Positions 5,411 through 22,116 of a stretch of DNA of 64,000 bases are shown piece by piece; position 1 is the first letter of the stretch; each line of letters begins with the position of its first letter. This DNA is from Dehalococcoidia bacterium (lineage in GTDB: Bacteria; Chloroflexota; Dehalococcoidia; UBA2979), in the NCBI GenBank assembly GCA_965262725.1, contig OZ253555.1, forward strand, positions 2,560,001-2,624,000, given 5' to 3'. The notes beneath the pieces were generated by a model, which saw only the letters and a program-made list of their open reading frames with translations, did no database searches and was not told the DNA's origin. The position numbers were made by a program, and so were the translations under genes.

Positions 5411-7159
5411 ATGCAGATCCGACAGATCGACATTCGGCACTTTCGTGGGTTTGACTCGCTGCGCATTACGCCATCGGGCCACGTACTCCTTGTGGGTGAG
5501 CCCCGCGCAGGTCGGTCTGATGTCGTGGAGGCTCTGACTCGAGTCTTCGATCCCGACGCCACCCGAGCACCGCTCACCGAGGACTTGGACTTCTTTCGGC
5601 GGGGCACTGGGACCAGGGCGGAGGTCGAAGTCGTCATCGGCGATCTTGGGGTTGAGTTGGAGCAGCGATTCTTTGACCAGATCGAGTTTTGGGACGCCTC
5701 CCACGGGTCGCTGGTGCCTGCAGCAGGCCCGGGAGAAGTTGCACTCGAAGACTGGGAGCCAGTGGTTCGCCTCTGCTATCGAGCCGAGTGGCAACAGAGC
5801 GAACAGCTCGCCGATCACTGGGTCGACTTCCCAAAATTCTCCGATCCCGACGCGGATGACGTCCGCCGGATTCGGCGTGTCGATCACGCAGCGCTTCCCT
5901 TCCAGCGCGTGAATGCGTCGGGTCTCCCGCTGAGGCTCACATCCCGCTCGCCCTTTCGACGGATTGTGGCCCAGTCGGATGGCGACGACTTCCCGGAAGC
6001 ACTCGACCGGATGGTGGAGGAACTCCGCGGCGGTTCCGGAGAGTTCACTGCTAGTGCTCAAGTGCAGGCTGCTCTGAAGGCAGTCTTTCGCGATATTTCC
6101 CATCCGCTCCGGGTGCCCGACACACTGCCTGAAGATATGGTGAAGTTCATCCCTGACGGAGGGTCGCTTCCGTTTCTGCTCCGGTCCTTCAGCCCTACGG
6201 TCGATCTCGGCGACGAGGCAGGTCAACTTCCCATACAGCGGCACGGGTCGACGACCGAGGCTCTCATGGCAACGGGCGAAGCACTTGCCACTATGCACGG
6301 TGGGTCGGCCATCGTCGTAGTCGATGACTTCGGTGAGGGAATGGACGCGGCGTCCGCAAAGTTCGCTGCACAAGCTCTCCGAGCGGCGGCGCGGCAGGGG
6401 TGGGTGTCTACAAGAAGAGGATCAGTCGCGGAAGCATTCCGCCCCTCGGAGATGGTGCGTCTGGCCCGGACAACCGATTCGAAACGATCGTCCTTCCAGG
6501 GCAAAGAGCCCAGTAGCAGAGCGGAGCGACTCGCTGCGCGCCACCTGGCGTTACAGCTGCTACCCGCGATCGCGGCCCGCGCACTGATCGTGGTCGAGGG
6601 TCCCCATGATCACGCTGCATACCAAGCGCTCGCGACCCGGCTGTTCGAGGACGAGGGGATCCCTCCCCCAGGTGCACACGGTGTACACCTCATCCACGCG
6701 GCGGCTGCAGATTCGGCAGGGGGGTCGAGCGCGACGGCCCGACTTGCCAGAGCTGCGCAGGGCCTTGGGTTTCGGGTCGCAACTGTCATTGACCACGACG
6801 GCGATGGCCACCAAGCACAGGCTGAGCTGGAGGCGAATCTTGAGTCAGCCGACGCGGTTGTGCGCCTGCCGACGCGAGTTGCCGTGGAACGCGCTCTGGT
6901 GAAGGGGTTGGCCGCCGCCACGCTTCGGTCCGTCATCAGTGATCTGGATACCGCATTCGACCTGCAGATCGAGGTGGCTGGCACGGCGGACGCGGACTTG
7001 GAAGATTTGGCTGTCCGTACGCTGAAATCGCGCGGTGGATTCCACGCGCAGTTCGTCGAGGCACTTCCGCCGGGCTGCATTCCGGGAATCGCTCGTCGAG
7101 TGCTGGAGACAGGTTTGCGTTGCGCCCTGGGCGAAGAACAGGGTCATCAGCAACTGTGA
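5411..7159 (+). CDS. OLD-family ATP-dependent nuclease (GajA-like): ABC-ATPase-like domain plus TOPRIM
   Basis: N-terminal I..FRG motif; degenerate Walker A GEPRAGRS; TOPRIM LIVVEGPHD and DHD; overlaps the UvrD gene by GTGA. Confidence 0.78.
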   Translation: MQIRQIDIRHFRGFDSLRITPSGHVLLVGEPRAGRSDVVEALTRVFDPDATRAPLTEDLDFFRRGTGTRAEVEVVIGDLGVELEQRFFDQIEFWDASHGSLVPAAGPGEVALEDWEPVVRLCYRAEWQQSEQLADHWVDFPKFSDPDADDVRRIRRVDHAALPFQRVNASGLPLRLTSRSPFRRIVAQSDGDDFPEALDRMVEELRGGSGEFTASAQVQAALKAVFRDISHPLRVPDTLPEDMVKFIPDGGSLPFLLRSFSPTVDLGDEAGQLPIQRHGSTTEALMATGEALATMHGGSAIVVVDDFGEGMDAASAKFAAQALRAAARQGWVSTRRGSVAEAFRPSEMVRLARTTDSKRSSFQGKEPSSRAERLAARHLALQLLPAIAARALIVVEGPHDHAAYQALATRLFEDEGIPPPGAHGVHLIHAAAADSAGGSSATARLARAAQGLGFRVATVIDHDGDGHQAQAELEANLESADAVVRLPTRVAVERALVKGLAAATLRSVISDLDTAFDLQIEVAGTADADLEDLAVRTLKSRGGFHAQFVEALPPGCIPGIARRVLETGLRCALGEEQGHQQL

Positions 7160-8796
7160 AGTTCGGTGATCTGTCGGACCAGCAACAGTCCGTGGTCACG
7201 GTGTCGGGTTCTACGACTCTCGTGCTCGGAGGTGCGGGAACCGGCAAGACCACAGCGGCCCTGTGGGTGGCGCGAACCGCCATCGAGCAAGGCGATGTTG
7301 GCCCCCACCAGAGGGTGTTGTTCCTGACCTTTTCGCGCACCGCGGTAAGCCAGATCGCCTCAAGATCGCTTGGTGTACTCGACGCGATCCGCGAGCGTGT
7401 CGAAGTGTCCACGTTTCATGCGTTCGGCCTGCGAATGCTGCAGGACTTTGGCCGATACACAGGCCTCGGCGCGGGGATACCGCGTGTGCAGTCTGTAGCT
7501 CGCGAACGACTGCTTGGGCGAGACCCCGCGTCTACTACCTACGACGAACTGGTACCGGCGGCGATTCGCATTCTCGGGGCGCCCCGAGTTGGGCCCCTCA
7601 TCGAGCGGCGCTGGCCGTTGGTCATCTGCGACGAATTCCAAGACACGAGCCCTGAGCAATGGGAGCTGCTCCGCCAGCTCTCACGGCACGCCCGGATGGT
7701 TCTTCTCGCCGACCCCAACCAGATGATCTACACCTTTGTACCCGGTGTAAGCCCGGAGCGACTGCAAACAGCACGAGCGCACGCCGACGTAGTGACCACA
7801 CTGCAGCCGAGTTCATTTCGAGATCCGAGTGGGTGCATCCCAGTGATGGCTGGAGCGATTCGAGAGCGGCGATTCTCATCCCAGGAAGTGCGTCACGCTG
7901 TGGCCGAAGGGCGCCTGACCGTGCACGCGGGCGTTACCGACGAAGCGGTAGTCGCAGTCATCAGGGCGGAGTTACAGGTCGCGAGAGAGACGGCCCTCCG
8001 CTCCGTAGGGATCTTTGCTCACTCGAACGAAGGCGTTGCGCAGCTTGGCGCAAGTCTTGCTGACGACGGAATAGAACATGCGCTTGTCGGCATCCCCGAG
8101 GCGCAGGGAGAGGCTCTGGCTACGCTCGCCGCGCTTTGTGGGTACGGCGCAGGCCTTGTTGACGAAGAGGGCGTCGGACAGGCGCTGGGAACGTTTCTTA
8201 CCGCCTGCACGCGTGGTGCCCCACCGGGTCTAGCGAAAGGCATGGCGTTTGGGAGCCCACTACTTCCCAGTGGGCTCCTCGTTCGCCTCCAGACTCTGAA
8301 GGAGGCACTCCTCCAAGCCTCACAAGAGAACCTCGATCGCCTAGTGGCCACTGCATGTGGTGCCTGGGACCAACTTGGCATTATTGGTGGCAGCCGCCCC
8401 TGGCGGCTGGCCGCAATCCGTTTCGCCGCATCCGCTCGACGTCTGACTCAACGTGACCGCCCGCTGCAGGAGTCGGTACTGCAACTGATTCAACAGGCCG
8501 AGCGTGACCGCGCGTCAGTCCTGGTTGGGAACGACTTCGTCGACCATCACCCGGTGCAGATCATGAACTTCCACCAGACAAAGGGAAGGGAGGTCGACCA
8601 GGTCATCCTTCTCTACCGCTCAGGTGACTACCTAGCGGACCGCCGTGCAACTGAGCCGTTTGCCGATGCATCACGTGTCCTCTATGTGGCACTCACTCGC
8701 GCTCGGCAGCGGGTCGTCGTCATGCTGCCCAGCGATCCACATCCGCTGATCGCGCCTTTCGGCCAACTTCTAGATCCGCCACACTGGTCGTCGTGA
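7156..8796 (+). CDS. UvrD/REP superfamily 1 helicase (GajB-like)
   Basis: GGAGTGKT, LTFSR, STFHAF, DEFQD, DPNQMIY, HQTKGRE and LYVALTRAR motifs; GTG 7156 is coupled to the upstream stop. Confidence 0.88.
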   Translation: MKFGDLSDQQQSVVTVSGSTTLVLGGAGTGKTTAALWVARTAIEQGDVGPHQRVLFLTFSRTAVSQIASRSLGVLDAIRERVEVSTFHAFGLRMLQDFGRYTGLGAGIPRVQSVARERLLGRDPASTTYDELVPAAIRILGAPRVGPLIERRWPLVICDEFQDTSPEQWELLRQLSRHARMVLLADPNQMIYTFVPGVSPERLQTARAHADVVTTLQPSSFRDPSGCIPVMAGAIRERRFSSQEVRHAVAEGRLTVHAGVTDEAVVAVIRAELQVARETALRSVGIFAHSNEGVAQLGASLADDGIEHALVGIPEAQGEALATLAALCGYGAGLVDEEGVGQALGTFLTACTRGAPPGLAKGMAFGSPLLPSGLLVRLQTLKEALLQASQENLDRLVATACGAWDQLGIIGGSRPWRLAAIRFAASARRLTQRDRPLQESVLQLIQQAERDRASVLVGNDFVDHHPVQIMNFHQTKGREVDQVILLYRSGDYLADRRATEPFADASRVLYVALTRARQRVVVMLPSDPHPLIAPFGQLLDPPHWSS

Positions 8797-9118
8797 TGGC
8801 GCAGACGCCGTGCCTCGTTCGTGGCACGACCCCCAGTCCATGAATCTGAGGCCCCAGTGACACCCCGCATCCGCCTCCCCGAACGATGCCTCGATGCCGG
8901 AGCGCCCCTCCCCCATGCCGAATGTAGCGATCGAGCGCGGAGTCCCGCTCGGCGACTCATCAACCGCTAGACCTGGCGTGCGAGCTACCCGACTCGCACG
9001 ACCTACGCCCTCCTGCGGCCCCTGGTGCGCCACGATGTGACCAGACTAAGATCACGCGCCTAACTCGCTGGCCAGCAATGGCGAGCGCCAAGACCTCCGA
9101 GAGGAAAGGAGCCGGGTT

Positions 9119-10388
9119 GTGGCCGGACACCGCGGACTGATTGCCGAGCTCAACCGGCAGACTAAGCAGGACGCCAGGCGGCGGGAGCAGAGGCAGCGGC
9201 ATGCAGCGTGAAGAGGCAGCCGCGCAACGGAAAGCAGAGCAAGCGGTGAGGGCGGAGCAGCGGGCCAGGGCCCAAGCGGAAAGGGCGCGCGCTGCCGAGC
9301 AGAGGCATACTGACCAGGAGGCCAAGCGTCTCCACATTGAGTCGATGGAGGCCGAGGTGTCTGCCCGGAACGCAGCACTTGCGGCCACCTATGGCGAGAT
9401 CGACAGCATCCTCGCCCACACGCTGGAGGTCGACGACTACGTCGACCTCGAAACGTTGCGCCGGGTTGCGGAGCACCCGCCGTTCGAGCCGGGGCAGTTA
9501 GCCACTCCCAATTCGCGGCCTGACCCCATCAAGCCGCCGCTTCGTCCCAAATTCGTCGCACCAACTGGCAAACCGAAGAAGTTCTCTCTGGTGCCCGGTG
9601 CCAAGAAGAGGTATGCCGCGTTGCTGGCACAGGCACAGGCCGACCATGACGAAGCCGTCCGTGCTTGGGAGTCGGAGGTCGCGAGTGTCCCCACGCGGCA
9701 AGAGGAAAAGGACCGTGCGTATGAGGCTGCGGAGAATCTCCGTGTGCAGCAACTCGAGGCCGCGAAAGCAAACCACGACACGGAGTGCGAGCAGCGCGAG
9801 GCCGAGGTCGCTGAAGCGAATCGCGCTCTCGACGAACTCATCACGAACCTCGCGTACGGCGTCGAGGATGCCGTACAGGAGTATGTATCGATCGTCTTGG
9901 GGAACTCCGTGTACCGCGACTCGTTCCCTGTAGCGCACGAGTTCGCCTTCGACTCGACGCAGGGTGAGTTGACACTGAAGGCCACTGTACCCGCGCCCTC
10001 CTCGATGCCAAGCATCCGCCAATACAAGTACATCAAGGCACGCGATGAAATCACGGAGACCGCGCTGTCCCAGAAGGAACAGAGGGAGCGCTACGCAAAC
10101 GCGGTGGCCCAAGTCGCCGTCAGGACGCTGCATGAGATATTCGAGGCTGACCGGACGGGCCGCATTCAGACGATCTCGCTCACGGTTGCAACCCAGACGA
10201 TCGACCCTGGCACGGGCCACATGACCGACATTCCATTCGTTGCGGTCGCGTCGGACCGTGCGACCTTCGAGTCCCTCGAGCTCACGAACGTCGTGCCAGC
10301 CGCTACTCTTGCACACCTAAAGGCCGCTGTGTCGAAGAACCCGTTCGCGTTAGTGGCGATTGACCTGTCCAAGGGCGTCCGGGGCTAA
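9119..10388 (+). CDS. Uncharacterised coiled-coil protein; probable true start GTG 9119 with a frameshift near 9200 (main frame 9141..10388)
   Basis: GAAAGGAG RBS before GTG 9119 (MAGHRGLIAELNRQ...); long Ala/Glu/Arg-rich helical N-half and a globular C-half; ends 7 bp before the next gene. Confidence 0.65.
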
Positions 10389-10395
10389 CTCGGAC

Positions 10396-11790
10396 ATGAG
10401 CGACCGCGTGTTCAACCCTCCCCCCAACTGGCCGAAACCGCCAGACGGGTGGATCCCGCCAACCGGGTGGAGGCCCGATTCGTCATGGCCTCCACCGCCA
10501 GACGGGTGGGAACTCTGGATCGCGCCCAACACCGACACAACCGATGTGGCCGAAGACCCGCCAGGCGCCACCGGTCCGCCTCCTTGGCCCGCGGCTCTTA
10601 CGCCACCATCGGGGTCTCCAAGCGCATCGCATCCTGGCAACGACCAACACGATGCCGAGGCGCTCGCTGAAGAGGTACGCCTGCTACAAGCCGAGGTGGA
10701 GTCGCTCCGGGGTCGCGACACCCGAGGCGGTGACGCGCTCGTCGACCTTGACGACGAGCGCGTCCTCCAAGAGGTCGGTATCTACAACTACCACCACCCC
10801 CTAGAGAATGCCGAGCAGTACCGGTCCAAGCTCGGTGCCATCAATCAGAGAATCAAGGAAATGGTGAAGGCCGGGGACGCGATTCTCGCCTCGGACATGT
10901 TCACGTACAACAACTCGCTGGCTAAGGGCCGCAAGATGACCGCCGACTTCTCGAAGCTGATGCTGCGGGCCTACAACGCCGAAGCCGACAACTGCGTCCG
11001 CGCGCTGCGGGCTGGCAACATTGCCACCGCCAAGAAGCGGCTGGAGGGGGCGGTGCAGGCTATCGCCAAGCTCGGGGCGATGATGGAGATGCGCGTGAAC
11101 CCTAGCTACCACGAACTCCGATTCGAGGAGTTGGAGTTGACATCGGACTACCTCATGAAGAAGCAGGAAGAGAAGGAGGCCGCGCGGGAGGAGCGCGAGC
11201 GGCTTCGCGAGGAGAGGCGGGCGGAGCAGGAACTAGCCGCTGAGCGTGAGCGACTCGACAAGGAGCGTTCCCACTACCTCGCGGCGCTCGAGGCGCTTCG
11301 TGCCAATGCCGACGAGACGGCAGTTGCCGAGATGGAGCAACGGCTCCGGAATGTCGACGAATCGATCGCACAGAATGACGATCGCGTCGCGAACATCCGT
11401 GCTGGCTACGTCTACGTGATCAGCAATCCCGGCTCGTTCGGGAAACGGATGGTCAAGATCGGGATGACACGTCGACTTGAACCAATGGATCGTGTCCGTG
11501 AACTCGGCGATGCCTCGGTGCCCTTCCCGTTCGACGTGCACGCGCTGTTCTTCGCCGACGACGCGGTCGCTGTCGAGCAAGAGCTGCACGACGCATTTGC
11601 GGAGGCGAGAGTCAACCGCGTGAACACGCGCCGCGAGTTCTTTTTCGCAACCCCCCTCGAGGTCCGCGACGTACTGACGGAGAAACTCGGCGCGCTTCTC
11701 GAATTCACCGAACAACCCGAAGCCACACAGTACCTCCAGAGCCGCAAGTACTGGCCCACGGACCCACCGGCCACTAGTCCGCCTCACTGA
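10396..11790 (+). CDS. DUF4041 + T5orf172/GIY-YIG nuclease (SNIPE/PD-lambda-1-like) with a Pro/Trp-rich N-terminus
   Basis: KLMLRAYNAEADN (DUF4041-type); AGYVYVISNPGSFG..VKIGMTRRLEP.DRV.ELGDASVPF.FDVHA and RVN.RREFF. Confidence 0.88.
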   Translation: MSDRVFNPPPNWPKPPDGWIPPTGWRPDSSWPPPPDGWELWIAPNTDTTDVAEDPPGATGPPPWPAALTPPSGSPSASHPGNDQHDAEALAEEVRLLQAEVESLRGRDTRGGDALVDLDDERVLQEVGIYNYHHPLENAEQYRSKLGAINQRIKEMVKAGDAILASDMFTYNNSLAKGRKMTADFSKLMLRAYNAEADNCVRALRAGNIATAKKRLEGAVQAIAKLGAMMEMRVNPSYHELRFEELELTSDYLMKKQEEKEAAREERERLREERRAEQELAAERERLDKERSHYLAALEALRANADETAVAEMEQRLRNVDESIAQNDDRVANIRAGYVYVISNPGSFGKRMVKIGMTRRLEPMDRVRELGDASVPFPFDVHALFFADDAVAVEQELHDAFAEARVNRVNTRREFFFATPLEVRDVLTEKLGALLEFTEQPEATQYLQSRKYWPTDPPATSPPH

Positions 11791-11909
11791 TCGAGTCTCC
11801 GGCGCTAGACGTACGCTGAGGCGCGAGATAGGCGGTAGCGGCCGCCCTTGCGGCTCGGGCCGCTTCTCGCCAAAGGTTGTCGGACTCGGGTGCCAGGAAG
11901 GTTCCGTCC

Positions 11910-13133
11910 ATGCCGCCGGCCGTTCTCGCGTGGCTCGACTATTCCGAGGCTGACCAGCGTCGGGCCCGGGAGATCATCGCGATATTCTCGCAGCGGGAGA
12001 GTCGCGACGAGCTGGGGCTCGGCGGGATTCGGGACGCGCTGAGCGACACGCTCTTCCCGGGCATCTCCGTGCTGCTCACGCGCGCCCGGTATCTCCTCTT
12101 CGTGCCCTGGCTCTTCCGCGAGGGGGCGAGCCGCGGCTACCGTGGCCCGCAACTCGCGTCGTGGGTCGACGGGCAGGAACGGCGTCTCATCGGCGCGCTC
12201 CGCACGGGCGGCGATCTCGGAGGGCTGATCGGCCGCAACGTGGGCCCTGCCGTCCGGATCCTTCCCTCCACGATCTATTGGCCCAGCCTCCGGCGCTTCG
12301 GGATCCTGCGGCACGAGGGGACGGTGGCCCAGGTCGCGGGTCTTCGCCAGATCTCGCGCACGCCGGACGATGCGACCGAGTTCCTCGAACGCTCCGATGC
12401 GGTTTGGGCTCCCTCGATTCCCGCGCCCCCGAGCGACTTCTCCGGCATGACTCGCTGCAACTTTGCGCTCACGCACGACGAGGCGACGTGGCTTGCCGAG
12501 AGGATCGTCGCGGCCGTACCCGGAACCCTGCTCGAATTCCTGGTGGCCGGGGGGCACCGTCCCTCGGCTGTCGCCGACTACGCCTGGGAGGATCCCTCGG
12601 CCCATGCGGCGACCGGGCCAGTCCGCGCCGCGCTCGACGAGACGCGCCGCTTCGCCGTCGCGATGCACGGAGCCCAGCTCCTCTACAACGTGCTCCTAGC
12701 CGAACGCGCCGAGGAGATCGGTCTCTCCGAGTCCGGCGGCCGCCGCGAGGTGTACACCTCCCGGATGGACGAGTGGCTCCGCGAGGTGGAAGCGAGCGAC
12801 ATCGGAGACTGGGACCTGGACGGGCTGTGGATGCTGGTCGCGGAGCAGGGGAGGCCGGCCCCGCCGCGGACGCGCGCCTTCGTGACGGAGTGGGTCGCCC
12901 TGGCGCAGGGTCGGAGCGGCCACGGGCTCGCGGGCGATCCACATGCGCGGGAGCTGGTTCGGAGCCGCGAGCTCCATCAGAAGGGCGGCCAGGCGCGGCT
13001 CCGCAACGACCGACTGATGCGGCAATGGGGCGGCGCCTCCGGATCCGGCCGCCTCAACTTCCGCTGGCCCGCCGTCGTGGTCCTTCTCGGCGACATCGCC
13101 GACGGGCGGGAGCGTGGCCATGCTCGCCCCTGA
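11910..13133 (+). CDS. DUF6361-family protein (first gene of an Azaca-like operon)
   Basis: WLDYS...RDELGLGGIRDALSDTLFPGIS...TRARY.LFVPW signature, recalled as DUF6361. Confidence 0.75.
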   Translation: MPPAVLAWLDYSEADQRRAREIIAIFSQRESRDELGLGGIRDALSDTLFPGISVLLTRARYLLFVPWLFREGASRGYRGPQLASWVDGQERRLIGALRTGGDLGGLIGRNVGPAVRILPSTIYWPSLRRFGILRHEGTVAQVAGLRQISRTPDDATEFLERSDAVWAPSIPAPPSDFSGMTRCNFALTHDEATWLAERIVAAVPGTLLEFLVAGGHRPSAVADYAWEDPSAHAATGPVRAALDETRRFAVAMHGAQLLYNVLLAERAEEIGLSESGGRREVYTSRMDEWLREVEASDIGDWDLDGLWMLVAEQGRPAPPRTRAFVTEWVALAQGRSGHGLAGDPHARELVRSRELHQKGGQARLRNDRLMRQWGGASGSGRLNFRWPAVVVLLGDIADGRERGHARP

Positions 13134-14919
13134 CAGCCGCGCGCTACTACTCGACGCGCTGAGGCCGCCCCCGGGTCACTCCCTCGATCACGCCGTCGCG
13201 ACCACCTTCACGCTCGATCTCGAGACGGCCCTCATGGTCCCACTCGCCTTCGCGGGCTTCCGATTCGATGAGCAGACGGATCCCATCGAGATCATGGAAG
13301 CCCTGCGCGGGATGGGCGAACGGCTCGACATCTTCTGCCAGGCCGGCGCGATCGGCGCGGGAAGATGGCCCTCCGATCTCGTGGCGCTGCTCGAAGACGC
13401 CATCCACCAGGTGAGCCCCTCCCGGCCGGGCCACATCTTCCACCCGAAGGTCTGGGTGCTGAGGCTCCTCGATCGGGACCAGGCGCTCTCGTACCGCCTC
13501 CTCGTGCTCTCCCGGAACCTCACCGACGACCGCAGCTGGGACACGATCCTCTGGCTGGACGGACGGCCCGAGGAGCGGCCCGTCGCGAGCAGCGAGCCGC
13601 TCGCGCGGTTCGTCTCGGCGCTGCCGGAGCTCGCCGTCACACGGTTGCCGGCCGACCGCCGGGCGACCCTGACCGCGCTCGCCGACGAGCTGGGGCGCGT
13701 CCGGTGGGACCTCCCGGCCGGCGTGCGGGAGATCCGCTTTCACCCCATCGGACTGCCGGGTGTGCCACCGTTCGCTGCCGACGAGCATTTCGACGGCTAT
13801 CGCACGCTCGCGATCTCACCATTCGTTCGGGCCGGTGCGATTCGCCGTCTCCTTCGACCAGAGGCGGGGCCGGCCGTGCTCGTCTCGCGCGGCGAGGAGC
13901 TCGATGCGCTTCCCGGGGGCGCTCTCGAGGGCCTGGACGTCTACGAACTCGATCCGGCCGCGAGTCTCTCCGGGGACGACGTCGAGGGGGAATCGGGGCC
14001 GGCCCGCCTCACACGTCTGCACGCGAAGCTCTTCGCGGTCGAGCGGGACCGGCAAGCGCACCTCTTCGTCGGATCGGCCAACGCGACGGACGCGGGTCTC
14101 GGCGGCAACGTCGAGTTCCTCTGCGAGCTCATCGGCTCCGTCGCGAGGCTCGGGGTCGACGCGCTCGTCGGCGACGAGGCGCCGCTCCGCGGCATGCTGA
14201 CGCCGTACGTCGCCTCCGAGGCGCGGCCCCCCGACGAAGCCGTCGCGGCGGGCCGCGCGCTCGAGGACCTGTTGCGCACCATCGCGGCGCAGCTCCGCTT
14301 CCGCACGAGCGTCACGAGAGGAGGGGGCGGATGGGTCGCACGCGTCACGGCCGACGGCGTGCTGCCGCGCATTCCCGAGGGCGCGCAGGTGACGCTCGCT
14401 CCCCACAACCGGCCGACCGAGACCCACGCTCTCACTCCCGCGGAGCCCATCGACGTGGAACTGCCGCCCCGTGAGCTCGCGGACATCACTCCGTTCCTGC
14501 GGCTCACGGGGCGCCGGACGGTCGGGCGGACGATGCTGGAGCGCTCGGCCGTCGTCCTGGCGCGGCTCGACGGTGCGCCGGACGACCGCCTCCAGGAGAT
14601 CCTGGCGCGGCAGATCGACACGCCGGAGAAGTTCCTGCGGCTGCTCGCCCTGCTGATCGGCTTCGCCGCGGGAAGGGGCGGCGCCGGTACCGTGACGGGC
14701 GATGGGGCGGCTGGCTGGTCGGGCGGCGCCGGGCAGGGCGTCCTGGAGCTGCTCGCGCGCGCCCTCTCGGAGAGGCCCGAGTCCATCGATCACCTGGAGG
14801 CGATCGTCGAGCACCTCCGTCGGTCGCCGAGCGGGAGGGAGGTCCTCCCTCCGGGCTGGGACGAGGTGTGGCTTCCGGCGCTCGAGGCGCGGCGCGCGAT
14901 GCGAGCTGACGACTCGTGA
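13120..14919 (+). CDS. Phospholipase D-superfamily (HxK) nuclease-like protein
   Basis: Two HxK motifs: FHPKVW...SRNLT and LHAKLF...GSANAT; overlaps both neighbours. Confidence 0.82.
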   Translation: MLAPDSRALLLDALRPPPGHSLDHAVATTFTLDLETALMVPLAFAGFRFDEQTDPIEIMEALRGMGERLDIFCQAGAIGAGRWPSDLVALLEDAIHQVSPSRPGHIFHPKVWVLRLLDRDQALSYRLLVLSRNLTDDRSWDTILWLDGRPEERPVASSEPLARFVSALPELAVTRLPADRRATLTALADELGRVRWDLPAGVREIRFHPIGLPGVPPFAADEHFDGYRTLAISPFVRAGAIRRLLRPEAGPAVLVSRGEELDALPGGALEGLDVYELDPAASLSGDDVEGESGPARLTRLHAKLFAVERDRQAHLFVGSANATDAGLGGNVEFLCELIGSVARLGVDALVGDEAPLRGMLTPYVASEARPPDEAVAAGRALEDLLRTIAAQLRFRTSVTRGGGGWVARVTADGVLPRIPEGAQVTLAPHNRPTETHALTPAEPIDVELPPRELADITPFLRLTGRRTVGRTMLERSAVVLARLDGAPDDRLQEILARQIDTPEKFLRLLALLIGFAAGRGGAGTVTGDGAAGWSGGAGQGVLELLARALSERPESIDHLEAIVEHLRRSPSGREVLPPGWDEVWLPALEARRAMRADDS

Positions 14920-17900
14920 CCCGGGAGAGCCGGGGAGGCCGGGCGGCAGCACTGAGCGACTTCCAGCGAGCGACGGCTCAGCACGCGTTCCGGCGCCTCT
15001 ATCTCGATGGGGACTCATCGCGACGCTTTCTCGTGGCCGATGAGACGGGGCTGGGGAAGACACATGTCGCCAAGGAGGTCATCGCCCTCACCCTCGATCA
15101 CCTGCAGCAGGTCGACCACGTCGAGCGCATCGACATCGTCTACGTCTGCTCCAACGCGGACATCGCCCGCCAGAACATCCGCAAGCTCACCATCACGGGC
15201 TCGGAAGGCCCGAGCTTCGCGACCCGCCTGAGCCTTCTGATCACGCAGCCGGACGTGCTCACACCCGCGCCCGGCCGCGAGGGGAAGGCGTCCACCTTCG
15301 TCGCCTTCACGCCGGCGACGTCCTTCCAGTTCGGGCTGCAGATGGGGACGGCTGCGGAGCGCGCCGTGCTCTACGTGCTCCTGCGCGATCACCTGGGCCT
15401 CCGGCGGGCACGGGCAACGGCGGCGCAGCGGATCTTCCGGGGAGCCGTGAGCAGCCGGCGCAGGTTCGTCAAATCGTACGTCGCGTCCGTTCACCCACGG
15501 CGCTTCGAGCCCGTCATCCGCCGGACGTTCCTCGAGGAGTTCGACCGGAGTCCCGAGCGCGCATCGCTCGTCTCCCTGGTCGATGAGGTCACGGGGCGGC
15601 GATCGCTGACCCCGCACCAGCACCGCGCGGCACGCCGTATTGTCGGAGGCCTGCGCCGGATGCTCGCACGAGCGGCTGTGCAGGCGCTCACGCCGGACCT
15701 CGTGATCCTGGACGAGTTCCAGCGCTTCCGGGATCTCCTCGACGTGAAGAGCGGCACCGAGGCGGCCGAGCTCGCGAACTACTTCTTCACGCAATCGGAC
15801 GCGCGCGTGCTGTTGCTCTCGGCCACGCCCTACAAGCCGTTCACCTACGCGGAGGAGAGCGCCGGAGGTGCCGGTCACTACGAGGACTTCCTGAAGACGG
15901 TGGAGTTCCTCGCGGCATCCGAGCGACCCGTGGATGCCGTGCGCGCAGACCTCGACGCCCTGCGGCAGGCGGCGCTCTCGGGCGAACCGACCGCCGCGAT
16001 CCGGGATCGCGTCCAGGCCCGCCTCCGGAGGTGGATCGCCCGGACCGAGCGGCCCACGGACGACCGGCGCACCACCACCCTCGATATGGCCGCGACTCCG
16101 TTCCGTGTCCGGGCGGAGGACTTCTCGGGCTGGGTCGCCCTCAAGCGGGTCGCGGACGAGGTCGGGGGGCCGCTCGGCATCGAGTACTGGAAGTCGGCCC
16201 CCTACTTCCTCAACTTCCTGAGCGGCTACCGCGTCGGCGAACACGTCCGCGAGCACATGAAGGTCCCGGACCGGCGGTCCCGGCTGATGCCGCTCTTCCG
16301 CGGCGCGCAGCGGATCGCGAGGTCCGACGTGGAGCGCTTCCAGCCGCTCGAGTGGGCCAACGCCCGCATGCGCGCTCTGGCCGCGGAGATGCTCGATCCG
16401 GGCTGGTGGCGATTGCTCTGGATGCCGCCGTCCCTTACCTACCAGGCGCTCGGCGGTCCGTACGCGTCGGTCGACGCCACCGCCATCACCAAGCAGCTCA
16501 TCTTCTCGAGCTGGGTCGCCGCTCCCTCGGCCATCGCCTCGCTCCTCAGCTACGAGGTCCAGCGGCGGATCTTCGCGGGAGCCGGCCACGTCGCGAACAC
16601 GCCCGCGGCCCGGGCCGCGATCTCGAGCCGCCTCGACTACCGGACGGCGGACGAGCGGCCCGCCTCGATGTCGGTGCTCGCGCTCTTCTGGCCGCAGCCG
16701 GAGCTGGCCTCTCGCACCGACCCGCTCGACGCCGCCCGCGAAGAGCCCGATCCGCCGAGCGTGGATCGTCTGCTCGAGTGGTCGCGGGGCCGCGTCGAGG
16801 CGCTCGTCGGACCTGCCGGCGAGACGATCTCCTCAGCGAGCGCTGCCTGGTACTGGTTCGCACCCGTACGCGCCGAGCGGGGCCGAGCCCTCGCATTCGC
16901 GCTCCTCGCGGCGCCGCGGAGCGCCCAGGCCGAGGCCCTGGCCGGAGCCTCCCCGGATCACACGCCGGACGTTCCGCGCGCACTGGACGCGCACGTGGAG
17001 CAGGTGATCCGGGCCCTCACCGGCTGGACACCGGAGTCGGAGCCGCCGGCGGACCTGGTCGCGACCACGGCGCTCCTCGGCGTGGGGGCGCCGGGAAACA
17101 TCGCGTGGCGGGCGCTCAACCGGCTGCGGCGGGCGGATGACCAGGCGACCGAGCTGGGGCGGTGGCGGGCGGCGGCGATCCTCGCCTCGGGGCTGCGGAG
17201 CCTCTTCGGCCGTCCCGACGCGATGCTGCTCATCGACCACGTCTACTCCGGCTCGGGCGGCACGCGCGAGGACGACGGTGCCTACTGGCGCCGGGTCGCG
17301 CGCTACTGCATCGACGGGGGCCTCCAGGCCGTTCTCGACGAGTACATCCACCACCTCGCCGGGGAATCAGGGGTCGACACGACGACCGACGAGGGGCTGA
17401 TCGCGCTGGCCGCGACCGCGCGGCGCGCGATCTCCCTCCGGGAGTCGGTCTACCGCGCGACCGACATCGATCACTTCGACGGCGAGGGGATCGCGTTCCC
17501 GAGCCGGTACGCGCTGCGCTTCGGCAGCACGCGCCACACCCAGGATGAGGCCCGCCTCCCCGAGGTCAGGGCGGCCTTCAACTCGCCGTTCTGGCCGTTC
17601 GTGCTGGCGACCACCTCCGTCGGACAGGAGGGGATCGACTTCCACTGGTGGTGCCACTCGATCGTCCACTGGAATCTCCCGGGCAACCCCGTCGACTTCG
17701 AGCAGCGCGAGGGCCGCGTGGACCGCTACAAGGGTCACGCGATCCGCAAGAACGTCGCGGCCGCTCACCGGTCGGCGGCTCTGGGTCCGGGAGTCACGGA
17801 CCCGTGGGCCGCGGTCTTCGACGCCGCCGCGGCAGGCGACGACCACGGCCTGGGGGACCTCACCCCCTGCTGGATATACCCGGGCGATGCCCGGCTCCAG

Positions 17901-18110
17901 CGGCGGATCATGGCCCTCCCCCTGAGTCGCGACGAGGAGCGATGGGACCGGCTGCAGGAGGCGCTGGCGCTCTATCGACTGGCGTTCGGGCAGCCGAGAC
18001 AGGAGGACATGCTGGCCGCACTAGAGCGTCGCGGCATAGCCGGGAGGCCGGAGCGGATCGCCGAGCTGCGGATCGACCTGAGACCGCCGGCGCTGCAAGC
18101 AAGCCCCTAG
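14916..18110 (+). CDS. Superfamily 2 helicase (third gene of the Azaca-like operon)
   Basis: ADETGLGKT, DEFQ, LLSATP, TSVGQEGIDFH and EQREGRVDR; its stop TAG is the CTAG target of IS5. Confidence 0.88.
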   Translation: MTRESRGGRAAALSDFQRATAQHAFRRLYLDGDSSRRFLVADETGLGKTHVAKEVIALTLDHLQQVDHVERIDIVYVCSNADIARQNIRKLTITGSEGPSFATRLSLLITQPDVLTPAPGREGKASTFVAFTPATSFQFGLQMGTAAERAVLYVLLRDHLGLRRARATAAQRIFRGAVSSRRRFVKSYVASVHPRRFEPVIRRTFLEEFDRSPERASLVSLVDEVTGRRSLTPHQHRAARRIVGGLRRMLARAAVQALTPDLVILDEFQRFRDLLDVKSGTEAAELANYFFTQSDARVLLLSATPYKPFTYAEESAGGAGHYEDFLKTVEFLAASERPVDAVRADLDALRQAALSGEPTAAIRDRVQARLRRWIARTERPTDDRRTTTLDMAATPFRVRAEDFSGWVALKRVADEVGGPLGIEYWKSAPYFLNFLSGYRVGEHVREHMKVPDRRSRLMPLFRGAQRIARSDVERFQPLEWANARMRALAAEMLDPGWWRLLWMPPSLTYQALGGPYASVDATAITKQLIFSSWVAAPSAIASLLSYEVQRRIFAGAGHVANTPAARAAISSRLDYRTADERPASMSVLALFWPQPELASRTDPLDAAREEPDPPSVDRLLEWSRGRVEALVGPAGETISSASAAWYWFAPVRAERGRALAFALLAAPRSAQAEALAGASPDHTPDVPRALDAHVEQVIRALTGWTPESEPPADLVATTALLGVGAPGNIAWRALNRLRRADDQATELGRWRAAAILASGLRSLFGRPDAMLLIDHVYSGSGGTREDDGAYWRRVARYCIDGGLQAVLDEYIHHLAGESGVDTTTDEGLIALAATARRAISLRESVYRATDIDHFDGEGIAFPSRYALRFGSTRHTQDEARLPEVRAAFNSPFWPFVLATTSVGQEGIDFHWWCHSIVHWNLPGNPVDFEQREGRVDRYKGHAIRKNVAAAHRSAALGPGVTDPWAAVFDAAAAGDDHGLGDLTPCWIYPGDARLQRRIMALPLSRDEERWDRLQEALALYRLAFGQPRQEDMLAALERRGIAGRPERIAELRIDLRPPALQASP

Positions 18111-19318
18111 GGGTTCTCTGAACAGGTCGCCGCGTCGTTACTGGAGCACATGCACACTCCGATGACTATATGCGATCATGGCACTCCTCCGGGAAAGGGG
18201 AGCGCTGCCATGCATCAGCCGACATTCGCGAGAGTCGAGTTCGAGCGGGATGGCTACAAGACGCGCCGCCAGAAGTTCCTCGAACGGCTGGATGGCCTCG
18301 TCCCGTGGCAGAGGTTCGAAGCAGCCATCGAGCCCCACTACCCGAAACCGGGCCGCGGGCGGAGGCCCTACCCGCTCTCCGTGATGCTGCGCATCCATAC
18401 CGTGCAACTCTGCTACAACCTCAGCGACCCCGGCATGGAGGATCTGCTCCACGAGGCCGAGTCGGTGCGAGCCTTCTGCTTCCTCACGCTCTCCGAGCCC
18501 ATCCCCGACGAGACGACGATCCTCAACTTCCGGCACCTGCTCGAGCGCCACTCCCTGGGTAGCAGGATCCTCCAACTCATCAACGAGCACCTCACGAGCA
18601 AGGGATTGAAGCTGAGCGAGGGCAGCATCGTGGATGCGACCATCATCTCGGCGCCATCGTCGACGAAGAATCGCGGGCGGGCGCGGGACCCGGAGATGCA
18701 TCAGACCAAGAAGGGGAAACAGTGGTTCTTCGGGATGAAGCTGCACATCGGCGCCGACAGGGATACTGGACTGGTCCACAACTTCACGACCACGCCTGCG
18801 AACGTGTCGGACGTGTCTGAGACGCACCGCCTGCTGCACGGCGAGGAAGCCGAGGTCTACGGCGACGCCGGGTACCGGGGCGTGCAGAAGAGACCCGAGA
18901 ACGCGGACTCCAGGGTCAAGGACTGGAACGTGGCGATGCGCCCGGGCCTCCGGCGTGCGCTCGACCCGGAGAGTCCTGAGGCCGTCGAGGAGAAGCGGAA
19001 GGCATCGGTGCGAGCGCTGGTGGAGCACCCGTTCTACAGCGTGAAGCGGCGCTTCGGCTACGCCAAGGTGCGGTACCGAGGTCTCTTCAAGAACCACGAG
19101 CGGTGTGCGGTCTTGCTGGGGTTCCACAACCTGCTCACCGCGAAGCCGCACCGTGCCTGACCGTGGGTGGAGTGCGCCCTCCCCGCCCCACACGGGGCGA
19201 GGAGGGGAGCCACAGGGGCCCGCGAGGGGGCGGATATGACCACTGTCATCGGGAATCCGCCTGAGAGCGCCTGATCGCGGCGAAACTGGGTCGCTAGACC
19301 CACCTGATCAGACTTGCC
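18111..19318 (+). mobile_element. IS5-family element, copy 1
   Basis: CTAG at 18107..18110 and 19319..19322; imperfect terminal IRs GGGTTCTCTGAACAGGT / GGCAAGTCTGATCAGGT. Confidence 0.92.
18210..19160 (+). CDS. IS5-family DDE transposase
   Basis: IPDETTILNFR, IVDATII, FGMKLHIG, YGDAGY and R..VEHPF..VKRRFGY motifs. Confidence 0.93.
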   Translation: MHQPTFARVEFERDGYKTRRQKFLERLDGLVPWQRFEAAIEPHYPKPGRGRRPYPLSVMLRIHTVQLCYNLSDPGMEDLLHEAESVRAFCFLTLSEPIPDETTILNFRHLLERHSLGSRILQLINEHLTSKGLKLSEGSIVDATIISAPSSTKNRGRARDPEMHQTKKGKQWFFGMKLHIGADRDTGLVHNFTTTPANVSDVSETHRLLHGEEAEVYGDAGYRGVQKRPENADSRVKDWNVAMRPGLRRALDPESPEAVEEKRKASVRALVEHPFYSVKRRFGYAKVRYRGLFKNHERCAVLLGFHNLLTAKPHRA

Positions 19319-19653
19319 CTAGGGAGAGCCCGCTGATGCGCCCATCGGAACAGCACGAGCGGTGGAGACTGAGTCTCCTTGGCGACCTCAAGCGACGCCT
19401 GAGCGGCTGCATCTGGTGTGGGTTCGGGCTTCGGCGCCAGCATTTTGTCCGGCTCAAGGAACCGTACAACGTGATCGTGTGGTTCGGACGCTCTGCACAG
19501 TGTGCTACGCTGCGCGAGCGGAGGCATGGGCCGGCCTCCTGAAGGAACCCTGTCACCCAGTCGGTGCCGGTTTGCGGGAGCTTCCTCACTCGACGGACGC
19601 TCTACCCCACGCCGCCACAAGCACCACCACCAGCGCCGGAGGAGGAGACAGCT

Positions 19654-20394: not shown

Positions 20395-20722
20395 GGGCTT
20401 ATGCAGGCGTGCCGACGAGGGGCGCCAAGCTGCATTGACACGCAGGACATCGGCGGTGCCCCCTGATCAAGCTACGCGAAGCGGCGTGGAGCGCTACCTC
20501 GCCGATCAGCTCCTACCGGCTATCGGCAAGGCGTATCCCCAGGCCTTCCCCGTACCGTCAACCTCCCGCGGAATCCTCTAGGAGAGCGAGGAGCGGCTGT
20601 CACGGCCCAGGGAGGTCCCGGCTATTGCCACACAGGAGAGACGCACGGGGCCTTCAACACTTGGCCCCCGCGCCACTGAGGGGCTAGGACCAAACGTCGT
20701 GGCTGTGGCCGCGACGCACTAG

Positions 20723-21929
20723 GGCAAGTCTGATCAGGTGGGTCTAGCGACCCAGTTTCGCCGCGATCAGGCGCTCTCAGGCGGATTCCCGATGACAGTG
20801 GTCATATCCGCCCCTCGCGGGCCCCTGTGGCTCCCCTCCTCGCCCCGTGTGGGGCGGGGAGGGCGCACTCCACCCACGGTCAGGCACGGTGCGGCTTCGC
20901 GGTGAGCAGGTTGTGGAACCCCAGCAAGACCGCACACCGCTCGTGGTTCTTGAAGAGACCCCGGTACCGCACCTTGGCGTAGCCGAAGCGCCGCTTCACC
21001 GTATAGAACGGGTGCTCCACCAGCGCCCGCGCCGATGCCTTCCGCTTCTCCTCGACGGCCTCAGGACTCTCCGGGTCGAGCGCACGCCGGAGGCCCGGGC
21101 GCATCGCCACGTTCCAGTCCTTGACCCTGGAGTCCGCGTTCTCGGGTCTCTTCTGCACGCCCCGGTACCCGGCGTCGCCGTAGACCTCGGCTTCCTCGCC
21201 GTGCAGCAGGCGGTGCGTCTCAGACACGTCCGACACGTTCGCAGGCGTGGTCGTGAAGTTGTGGACCAGTCCAGTATCCCTGTCGGCGCCGATGTGCAGC
21301 TTCATCCCGAAGAACCACTGTTTCCCCTTCTTGGTCTGATGCATCTCCGGGTCCCGCGCCCGCCCGCGATTCTTCGTCGACGATGGCGCCGAGATGATGG
21401 TCGCATCCACGATGCTGCCCTCGCTCAGCTTCAATCCCTTGCTCGTGAGGTGCTCGTTGATGAGTTGGAGGATCCTGCTACCCAGGGAGTGGCGCTCGAG
21501 CAGGTGCCGGAAGTTGAGGATCGTCGTCTCGTCGGGGATGGGCTCGGAGAGCGTGAGGAAGCAGAAGGCTCGCACCGACTCGGCCTCGTGGAGCAGATCC
21601 TCCATGCCGGGGTCGCTGAGGTTGTAGCAGAGTTGCACGGTATGGATGCGCAGCATCACGGAGAGCGGGTAGGGCCTCCGCCCGCGGCCCGGTTTCGGGT
21701 AGTGGGGCTCGATGGCTGCTTCGAACCTCTGCCACGGGACGAGGCCATCCAGCCGTTCGAGGAACTTCTGGCGGCGCGTCTTGTAGCCATCCCGCTCGAA
21801 CTCGACTCTCGCGAATGTCGGCTGATGCATGGCAGCGCTCCCCTTTCCCGGAGGAGTGCCATGATCGCATATAGTCATCGGAGTGTGCATGTGCTCCAGT
21901 AACGACGCGGCGACCTGTTCAGAGAACCC
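20723..21929 (-). mobile_element. IS5-family element, copy 2 (inverted relative to copy 1)
   Basis: Near-identical reverse complement of 18111..19318 (a few substitutions and one G indel); CTAG at 20719..20722 and 21930..21933. Confidence 0.92.
20880..21830 (-). CDS. IS5-family DDE transposase
   Basis: Same protein as 18210..19160 apart from two substitutions near the C-terminus. Confidence 0.93.
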   Translation of the reverse strand: MHQPTFARVEFERDGYKTRRQKFLERLDGLVPWQRFEAAIEPHYPKPGRGRRPYPLSVMLRIHTVQLCYNLSDPGMEDLLHEAESVRAFCFLTLSEPIPDETTILNFRHLLERHSLGSRILQLINEHLTSKGLKLSEGSIVDATIISAPSSTKNRGRARDPEMHQTKKGKQWFFGMKLHIGADRDTGLVHNFTTTPANVSDVSETHRLLHGEEAEVYGDAGYRGVQKRPENADSRVKDWNVAMRPGLRRALDPESPEAVEEKRKASARALVEHPFYTVKRRFGYAKVRYRGLFKNHERCAVLLGFHNLLTAKPHRA

Positions 21930-22116
21930 CTAGTGTCCCGAGTTGCAAATGCTGAAAACAATCGCACCGAGCCTCGCAGGCCTGGTCCGCTCAGTGGAGG
22001 CTTGGGTCGCAACTGGAAACGAGCACCGGAGGCGCTTCATCTGGCACAAGTCCGCGGACCAGATCCTTGACAACCTCACCGGATATCTCAATCGCATTTC
22101 CAATTCAGGACACTAG
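21930..22116 (+). mobile_element. IS630-derived MITE (~187 bp)
   Basis: Ends CTAGTGTCCCGAGTTGCAAATGC / GCATTTCCAATTCAGGACACTAG; internal remnant FIWHKSADQILDNLTGYLNRISNSGH. Confidence 0.85.

Follow-up and report, generated by a model that had tools for sequence, protein, structure and literature searches.

A conserved gene pair of a coiled-coil protein and an anchor-less SNIPE-type nuclease in a defence island of a Dehalococcoidia bacterium

The stretch of DNA analysed here (the window) comprises 64,000 nt from a Dehalococcoidia bacterium (GenBank assembly GCA_965262725.1, contig OZ253555.1, positions 2,560,001 to 2,624,000), the genome of which is a single contig of 3.67 Mb. It carries two genes on the + strand that we call A and B; the TAA stop codon of A ends at position 10388 and the ATG of B lies at 10396, which leaves a gap of 7 nt. 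Gene B encodes a nuclease of the SNIPE/PD-lambda-1 type with no predicted transmembrane (TM) helix, gene A a coiled-coil protein. A first-pass annotation had placed the two genes 7 bp apart between Gabija-like and Azaca-like operons, which was confirmed (GajA/B and ZacA/B/C), and had proposed that they form a two-component unit. The A-B pair appears to be an anchor-less SNIPE branch in which a known defence family occurs as a two-protein system.

Composition of the two genes

The features of the locus are listed below; open reading frame is abbreviated as ORF, AlphaFold2 as AF2, and its per-residue confidence, the predicted local distance difference test, as pLDDT.

10396..11790, + strand: gene B, TM-less SNIPE/PD-lambda-1-type nuclease of 464 aa (Pfam, PADLOC, AF2 model with pLDDT 76.4)
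10411..10518, + strand: Pro/Trp (PW) module of B, residues 6-41, PPxGW-type repeats with five invariant Trp (50-homologue alignment, AF2)
10531..10641, + strand: variable Pro/Ala/Ser-rich linker of B, ~residues 46-82, predicted to be disordered (pLDDT <50)
10954..11121, + strand: DUF4041 domain of B, residues 187-242 (Pfam PF13250, E 3.6e-21; same place in the whole-genome search)
11404..11679, + strand: T5orf172/MUG113 (GIY-YIG-type) nuclease domain of B, residues 337-428 (Pfam, E 9e-16)
9119..9211, + strand: detached 5' piece of A, with a GTG start and 30 codons of a conserved basic N-terminus, then TGA at 9209-9211
9205..9209, + strand: frameshift site at ~9207, where the window lacks 2 nt found in the family (DNA alignment; 7 of 7 relatives have two more bases)
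9201..10388, + strand: main ORF of A from ATG 9201, 395 aa, with most of the predicted coiled-coil hairpin, the acidic tip and the C-terminal domain
9855..10385, + strand: C-terminal alpha/beta globular domain of A (residues 247-423 of the homologue P0004), acidic (AF2)

B belongs to the SNIPE/PD-lambda-1 family. The DUF4041 domain and the C-terminal GIY-YIG nuclease named in the first-pass annotation were both found by Pfam, and the PADLOC hidden Markov model PD-Lambda-1 (PDLC03976) matches B at E 5e-110 (residues 83-451 against model positions 93-471 of 491). The first ~92 positions of the model have no match in B, and no N-terminal TM anchor is predicted, as had been read from the lack of a hydrophobic N-terminal helix. 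In a Kyte-Doolittle scan (19-residue window, usual threshold 1.6; a crude predictor) no TM-like segment was found in the B family, the highest value being 1.47 for residues 1-150 of 77 homologues and 1.53 for the full length of 47. Since the TM helix is also absent in 34% of 474 SNIPE homologues, according to the accessible part of the SNIPE paper (PMC13190303), the anchor defines the SNIPE prototype and not the whole family. Among 50 aligned homologues the GYxY, KIG, RR and Glu-414 positions of the nuclease domain are invariant, and we infer that Glu-414 is the counterpart of E414 of the E. coli protein. The linker differs widely in length and sequence in the same alignment; in the AF2 model it is followed by helices, DUF4041, a helical stretch of ~100 residues and the nuclease. 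A second, weak T5orf172-type match in the genome (C1:403728-403958, - strand, at L084 in genome G000; E 2e-7, in a frame of 233 aa) is unrelated to the pair.

The N-terminal Pro/Trp repeat is a conserved module rather than low-complexity filler. Over ~37 residues it follows the consensus FNPPPGW-PxPPxGW-xPPxGW-xPDPxW-PxPPxGW-xLW, with W12, W19, W25, W31, W38 and several Pro invariant in the 50 homologues; AF2 models it at a pLDDT of 76-85, with no helix and almost no strand. The module was detected by tblastn in 78 of 80 genome loci. The frame of the PW-coding start differs from that of the B core in 8 of 150 loci (L014, L023, L042, L055, L067, L068, L070 and L162), and these are broken copies or indel errors of long-read metagenome assemblies.

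The module also occurs outside the family. With residues 1-45 of B as the query, 53 proteins were found, 36 with and 17 without DUF4041. The latter include two TIR, one SNase-Excalibur, one GmrSD_C-Excalibur, two PASTA, two HIRAN and one zinc-ribbon protein, the remainder including several that have no Pfam family but predicted TM helices, some of them multi-TM; altogether at least one membrane helix is predicted in 15 of the 17. In the single-pass proteins the order is PW module, basic stretch, TM helix and extracytoplasmic domains, and application of the positive-inside rule to them would place the module in the cytoplasm beside the membrane. The fusions to TIR, SNase-Excalibur, GmrSD_C-Excalibur and HIRAN are among P0307, P0313, P0300, P0308, P0323 and P0325, and in some proteins (P0302, P0319-P0321, P0325) the module is C-terminal. 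It is seen mainly in Actinomycetota. Three further copies were found in five pair-bearing genomes, one of them on a short single-pass protein; within the genome of the window the module occurs only in B, and it was not found in 300 other sampled genomes of the same class. Another of the three copies belongs to Nocardioides tweenelious: ~1 kb beyond the A-B pair on its downstream side, a gene in convergent orientation codes for two degenerate PW modules followed by an Mrr_cat domain (Pfam E 6.5e-11; L179:664-1866, - strand, identical to L036:7856-9058, - strand), a second effector of this locus with a similar N-terminal module.

A is seen in its intact form in relatives of 423 aa that start with a conserved basic motif. 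The copy in the window is 88% identical to one of these, P0004, for which AF2 (97 sequences) gave a model with a pLDDT of 91.4. Its helices 5-96 and 162-246 are read as an antiparallel coiled-coil hairpin with a structured tip region at 97-161, followed by an alpha/beta domain (250-423), in line with the long coiled coil and globular C-terminal domain first described for the upstream protein. The mean net charge over 47 homologues is -5.8 for this head domain, -6.0 for the tip and +3.4 for the first 30 residues.

A has no family in Pfam or NCBIfam; it matches the PADLOC model mREase_IV (PDLC03663) at E 1.7e-33 over positions 25-380 of 544, a region that corresponds to an Mrr-fused protein without its nuclease. 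The match ends at position 380, and the Mrr_cat (PD-(D/E)xK) domain was not found in A; relatives that carry Mrr_cat measure 486-583 aa. By sequence comparison A is thus the non-catalytic part of the Mrr-fused family, standing alone at this locus, which agrees with the likeness noted in the first-pass annotation. A word-indexed search gave 908 relatives of A at E<=1e-3; the 120 matches listed, most of them of 409-428 aa, are all without precomputed Pfam domains, and JGI names some of them 'restriction system protein'. No relative was found in phage records.

Fold comparisons of the head domain were made on the full-protein model, and we do not claim a new fold. A wide VIA-align search returned mostly coiled-coil rows; for the head domain the top-ranking entry was 3ib5_A (Z 7.8, root-mean-square deviation 3.0, 103 aligned residues), a CamS-type sex-pheromone precursor whose score lies in the range that VIA-align calls common. 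ESM Atlas, queried with residues 247-423, gave unnamed clusters only. A hidden PD-(D/E)xK site in the head, considered for its alpha-beta-beta-beta-beta-alpha order, was rejected: the conserved columns hold no D...ExK, and no nuclease fold matched.

A profile of the A family collected 3147 cluster representatives at E<=1e-3 and 697 at E<=1e-30. We scanned 21 matches, chosen as unusually long or divergent, with Pfam: five have Mrr_cat behind the A module, three have TerD (one of them also Mrr_cat), two have AAA/NACHT in front, one is fused to DUF4041-T5orf172 and eleven have no family. The fusions to TerD, some with Mrr_cat, and those with the module C-terminal on AAA/NACHT are P0231, P0267, P0269, P0177 and P0179. 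This range suggests that the A module is a general regulatory or sensor module of conflict systems. Among 400 other sampled genomes of the phylum, 12 have a match to the module (a tally that includes G344 and G272), one of them of the pair type; the longer ORFs with the module that were scanned are A plus Mrr_cat in 9 of 9 cases, or in 8 of 8 without L183 from G344, which is flagged as unpublished.

Linkage of A and B and their surroundings

We scanned a genome collection with a 15-sequence alignment of A and took the best 80 of 300 relatives. A homologue of B lies directly downstream and on the same strand in 77 of these 80 loci. In the three loci that remain, the contig stops within ~350 nt of A: L012 and L052 still hold the PW-coding start of B ~20 nt after A, and L056 stops 6 nt after A and is therefore uninformative. 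A is followed by B in 79 of 79 informative loci of this set, which according to the record titles span Actinomycetota, Acidobacteriota, Nitrospirota, Gemmatimonadota, Pseudomonadota, Chloroflexota and others. In the reverse direction, a metagenome scan with the B alignment, from which 80 of 558 relatives were taken, had A directly upstream in 72 loci, and 7 of the remaining 8 begin in or at B, giving linkage in 72 of 73 informative loci. The exception is L148, in which a transposase-like ORF (2-1384, + strand) stands in place of A and of the N-terminus of B; from its sequence we take this ORF to be mutator/IS256-like.

The stop codon of A overlaps the start codon of B in 33 of 47 cleanly called pairs, by 4 nt in 21 and by 1 nt in 12. 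Pairwise identities among A proteins follow those among B proteins (Pearson 0.93, Spearman 0.76, 1081 pairs), which shows co-inheritance and not binding. Two natural fusion proteins were found, P0123 (893 aa) and P0184 (762 aa), and in P0123 the C-terminus of A is joined in frame to the PW module; the search for longer homologues was limited to at least 742 aa and found one fusion, and the Mrr-fused forms (~500-580 aa) came from the profile search. A and B are therefore an inherited unit, translationally coupled in most loci, whose adjacency goes far beyond chance. Thus the two-component unit of the first-pass annotation is upheld by the linkage in both directions, the overlaps and the fusions. 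A defence-tool model of the pair was also sought: in PADLOC-DB 2.0.0 the two genes match separate models only (mREase_IV and PD-Lambda-1). In the literature on DUF4041, as far as it was accessible, we did not find the pair described, and strings of the PW motif gave no relevant paper. The accessible text of the SNIPE paper (PMC13190303) names neither a partner gene nor a PW module, its Supplementary Table 3, which may list a PW N-terminus, being outside that text; the words 'Mrr' and 'restriction endonuclease' are absent from the main text, where 'operon' refers to manXYZ and to a gene-deletion method. In its accessible part, a review of defence systems (PMC12904381) does not mention a partner gene for DUF4041 proteins.

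In the window, the pair is preceded by Gabija-like GajA (5411-7159; weak match, best E 1.5e-31) and GajB (7120-8796; E 4.5e-63) and followed by a complete Azaca operon, ZacA/B/C (11877-18110; ZacA 1e-120, ZacB 9e-162, ZacC E 0), which places it in a defence island. Across window positions 1-24000 the G+C content is ~0.62-0.74. It is ~0.62-0.64 over the A-B pair as opposed to 0.71-0.74 over Azaca, a contrast that suggests separate acquisitions. Just 3' of ZacC, two inverted copies of an insertion sequence (18107-19322 and 20719-21933; arms of 1123 nt at 99% and 96 nt at 100%) enclose ~1.4 kb in an arrangement that resembles a composite transposon; the element codes for a DDE_Tnp_1/DUF772 transposase (18150-19160, + strand). 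As a gene for an IstB-like IS21 helper ATPase (133-1074, Pfam E 1e-60) lies at the left edge, the island is bracketed by mobile elements. Rfam has no family within 8600-12000, and a promoter and terminator scan gave nothing useful on the + strand.

At other loci, 14 of the 134 ORFs scanned in the flanks match PADLOC models at E<=1e-10, spread over 11 of the 25 loci, a frequency that stands without a control and is only suggestive; the scan covered 134 of 272 ORFs, from 25 of the 50 full-length loci. The matches include GajA-like, SoFic, mad2/3, AriAB, type II restriction-modification and candidate systems. On a mobilizable plasmid of Kocuria rosea the pair adjoins DUF262 and HEPN genes, A being annotated as 'hypothetical protein' and B as 'DUF4041 domain-containing protein'.

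Proposed mode of action and alternatives

As characterised in 2026, SNIPE is a single nuclease, anchored in the membrane, that acts directly on incoming DNA without killing the cell; according to the accessible part of that paper, TM helix, DUF4041 and nuclease are all required, the anchor keeps the host chromosome uncut, and removal of the TM helix makes the protein toxic in E. coli through DUF4041-dependent binding to the nucleoid (PMC13190303). For TM-less homologues the same text proposes DivIVA-like, T3SS-ATPase-like (type III secretion system), PH or DUF4428 N-termini as means to reach the membrane. B resembles E. coli SNIPE in having DUF4041, then a long helix, then a C-terminal GIY-YIG/T5orf172 nuclease, and the chemistry of the effector is probably the same, with DUF4041 binding DNA and GIY-YIG cutting it. 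Unlike SNIPE, it has the conserved PW module at its N-terminus in place of a TM helix, and it is encoded behind a 423-aa partner gene, whereas SNIPE is a single gene.

We lean slightly towards the view that A and B form a two-protein variant of SNIPE, in which the PW module replaces the anchor and A regulates or escorts the nuclease. B would be the effector, binding DNA through DUF4041 and cutting phage DNA with its GIY-YIG nuclease, and the PW module would direct it either to the membrane's inner face or to a hub associated with the membrane. Indirect support for such a role comes from the occurrence of this module on proteins outside the family, 15 of 17 of which have predicted TM helices. 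A, with its predicted hairpin and its acidic head and tip, would be made together with B by translational coupling, would bind B, and would keep the DNA-binding and the nuclease part of B masked or in position until the entry of phage DNA; A would then license cutting, and B would cut the entering DNA. An anti-phage activity of the branch is presumed. Because the linkage to A is obligate, a single-gene function of the B branch is spoken against. A prediction of the complex, with P0004 as the first row of the A alignment and the B alignment as partner, gave an ipSAE of 0.18 in both runs, below the mark of 0.32 and without controls, and we count it neither for nor against binding.

Several observations weigh against this two-protein variant. 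The fold of A offers no functional clue, as Foldseek found no match in the PDB at E<=1e-3, and the enrichment of defence genes near the pair stands without a control. At locus L062, A is present and B has no PW module, so the module is dispensable in places, and the two HIRAN proteins with a PW module have no predicted TM helix. DUF4041 occurs in five of the 400 other genomes of the phylum, one being of the pair type with A; the other four proteins are ~40% identical to B, TM-less, have coiled-coil N-termini and lack both the PW module and A, and the partner therefore belongs to this branch and not to all anchor-less SNIPE relatives. Finally, A is frameshifted beside an intact B in the window itself. 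Were A an indispensable inhibitor of a toxic B, a null A should not persist, and the two-protein variant therefore fits only if the truncated A still works.

The frameshift bears most directly on the possibility that the window copy is a decaying remnant, in which A would have been inactivated by the 2-nt deletion and the pair would have ceased to function. The frame of A is open over 9141-10388, and the detached 5' piece (9119-9208, in the other frame) aligns with the N-termini of the intact 423-aa homologues; the GTG start and a purine-rich stretch upstream of it are conserved in relatives, and read through the frameshift A would have 30 + 393 = 423 residues. A frameshift near 9200 had been suspected from the start, and the two missing nucleotides are indeed present in all seven relatives compared. 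Positions 8900-9600 are matched with 0 differences and 0 gaps by contigs of four public runs that come from two samples and two studies, so that the deletion is not an error of one assembly; one of these runs may be the source of the window, and contigs could miss a minor intact allele. Besides the deletion itself, the remnant explanation can draw on the conservation of the lost N-terminus across the A family and on the 8 of 150 other loci with an out-of-frame PW start, according to which broken copies or assembly errors do occur. However, the in-frame ATG at 9201, which is preceded by GAGG 7 nt before it and overlaps the end of the upstream 30-codon frame, would give a product of 395 aa, and from the sequence it is plausible that this product keeps all domains; the remainder of A and the whole of B have open frames, with 80-88% identity to intact relatives; and, since contigs drop rare variants, the population may hold an intact allele. 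Lacking its first ~28-30 codons, the window copy of A is probably still produced from ATG 9201 but may be impaired, and because of the frameshift the locus may not be fully functional, but complete decay of the pair seems to us a tentative possibility, less probable than continued function in some form.

The main rival to the two-protein SNIPE variant as a general mode of action is a sensor-effector system of abortive infection, in which A would sense a phage cue in the cytoplasm and a released B would degrade DNA indiscriminately, including that of the host, much as in a toxin-antitoxin or STAND-type system, the membrane having no role. In NACHT/AAA proteins the A module occupies the C-terminal end, where the sensor lies, and in Mrr nucleases the N-terminal end, where regulation lies, which would fit such a sensor; the overlapping upstream gene order is like that of antitoxin-toxin pairs, and an acidic A is what would be expected for masking a DNA-binding surface; the toxicity of TM-less SNIPE in E. 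coli points the same way (PMC13190303, accessible part). This explanation, however, leaves the strictly conserved PW module, elsewhere mostly found on membrane proteins, without a purpose, and the SNIPE that has been characterised cuts entering DNA without cell killing (PMC13190303, accessible part). The frameshifted A also persists next to an intact B in the genome of the window. We therefore rate abortive infection as unlikely, though it is the alternative that deserves most attention.

More improbable is a type IV restriction system, in which A would be the DNA-reading half of an Mrr-type modification-dependent enzyme with its nuclease replaced in trans by B. The match of A to the N-terminal 356 positions of mREase_IV PDLC03663 would agree with this, as would the fact that its closest longer relatives, the A plus Mrr_cat proteins, are annotated as restriction endonucleases. 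But DNA reading has never been shown for the A module, and B already has DUF4041 for DNA binding (PMC13190303, accessible part). Because A is acidic in both its globular domain and its tip and no DNA-binding fold was recognised in it, a type IV function is less likely, and the occurrence of the module in fusions with TerD and NACHT is unfit for a DNA reader.

That the two genes are independent single-gene systems lying side by side by chance, as the island of unrelated systems and their separate PADLOC models might suggest, has next to no probability in view of the two-way linkage over several phyla (79 of 79 informative loci in one direction, 72 of 73 in the other), the overlaps of stop and start codons and the fusions.

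Relation to known systems and meaning

A shares its predicted coiled-coil hairpin and alpha/beta module with the Mrr-fused 'restriction endonuclease' proteins (PDLC03663), but in these proteins of ~490-580 aa Mrr_cat follows in cis, whereas A stops short of this domain, its partner in trans being a nuclease of another superfamily. A non-catalytic partner that would place or license a DNA-targeting effector near the point of phage DNA entry recalls Zorya and Kiwa as described in the accessible part of a review (PMC12904381); there is no homology, and the partners in Zorya and Kiwa are integral membrane proteins, while A has no predicted TM helix. As in type II toxin-antitoxin pairs, the upstream gene is non-catalytic and runs into the start of a second one that encodes a potentially toxic nuclease, but A greatly exceeds typical antitoxins in size and lacks a DNA-binding repressor domain.

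Beyond this locus, it is conceivable, though we consider it doubtful, that both parts are undescribed, mobile building blocks of immunity: the A module a general regulator or sensor that acts in cis with Mrr, TerD and NACHT and in trans with a SNIPE nuclease, and the PW module a new cytoplasmic, membrane-proximal targeting or hub signal. Intact pairs are present in culturable Streptomyces, Kribbella and Nocardioides and on the Kocuria rosea plasmid, which makes experiments feasible; because of its frameshift the copy in the window is less suitable for them.

The branch offers a testable answer to how anchor-less SNIPE relatives avoid damage to their own cell, namely an obligate partner together with the PW module. 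That the PW module is shared by TIR, SNase, GmrSD-type and HIRAN proteins as well as many membrane proteins suggests a general signal for localisation or docking. If the two-module reading is true, a soluble, partner-controlled nuclease at the entry site would be a second solution to the problem of self and non-self. The A module is carried by thousands of Mrr-type 'restriction endonuclease' proteins in which the role of this N-terminal part is not known. Understanding the contribution of A to B would hence also account for a sizeable group of defence proteins that have an annotation but have not been studied.

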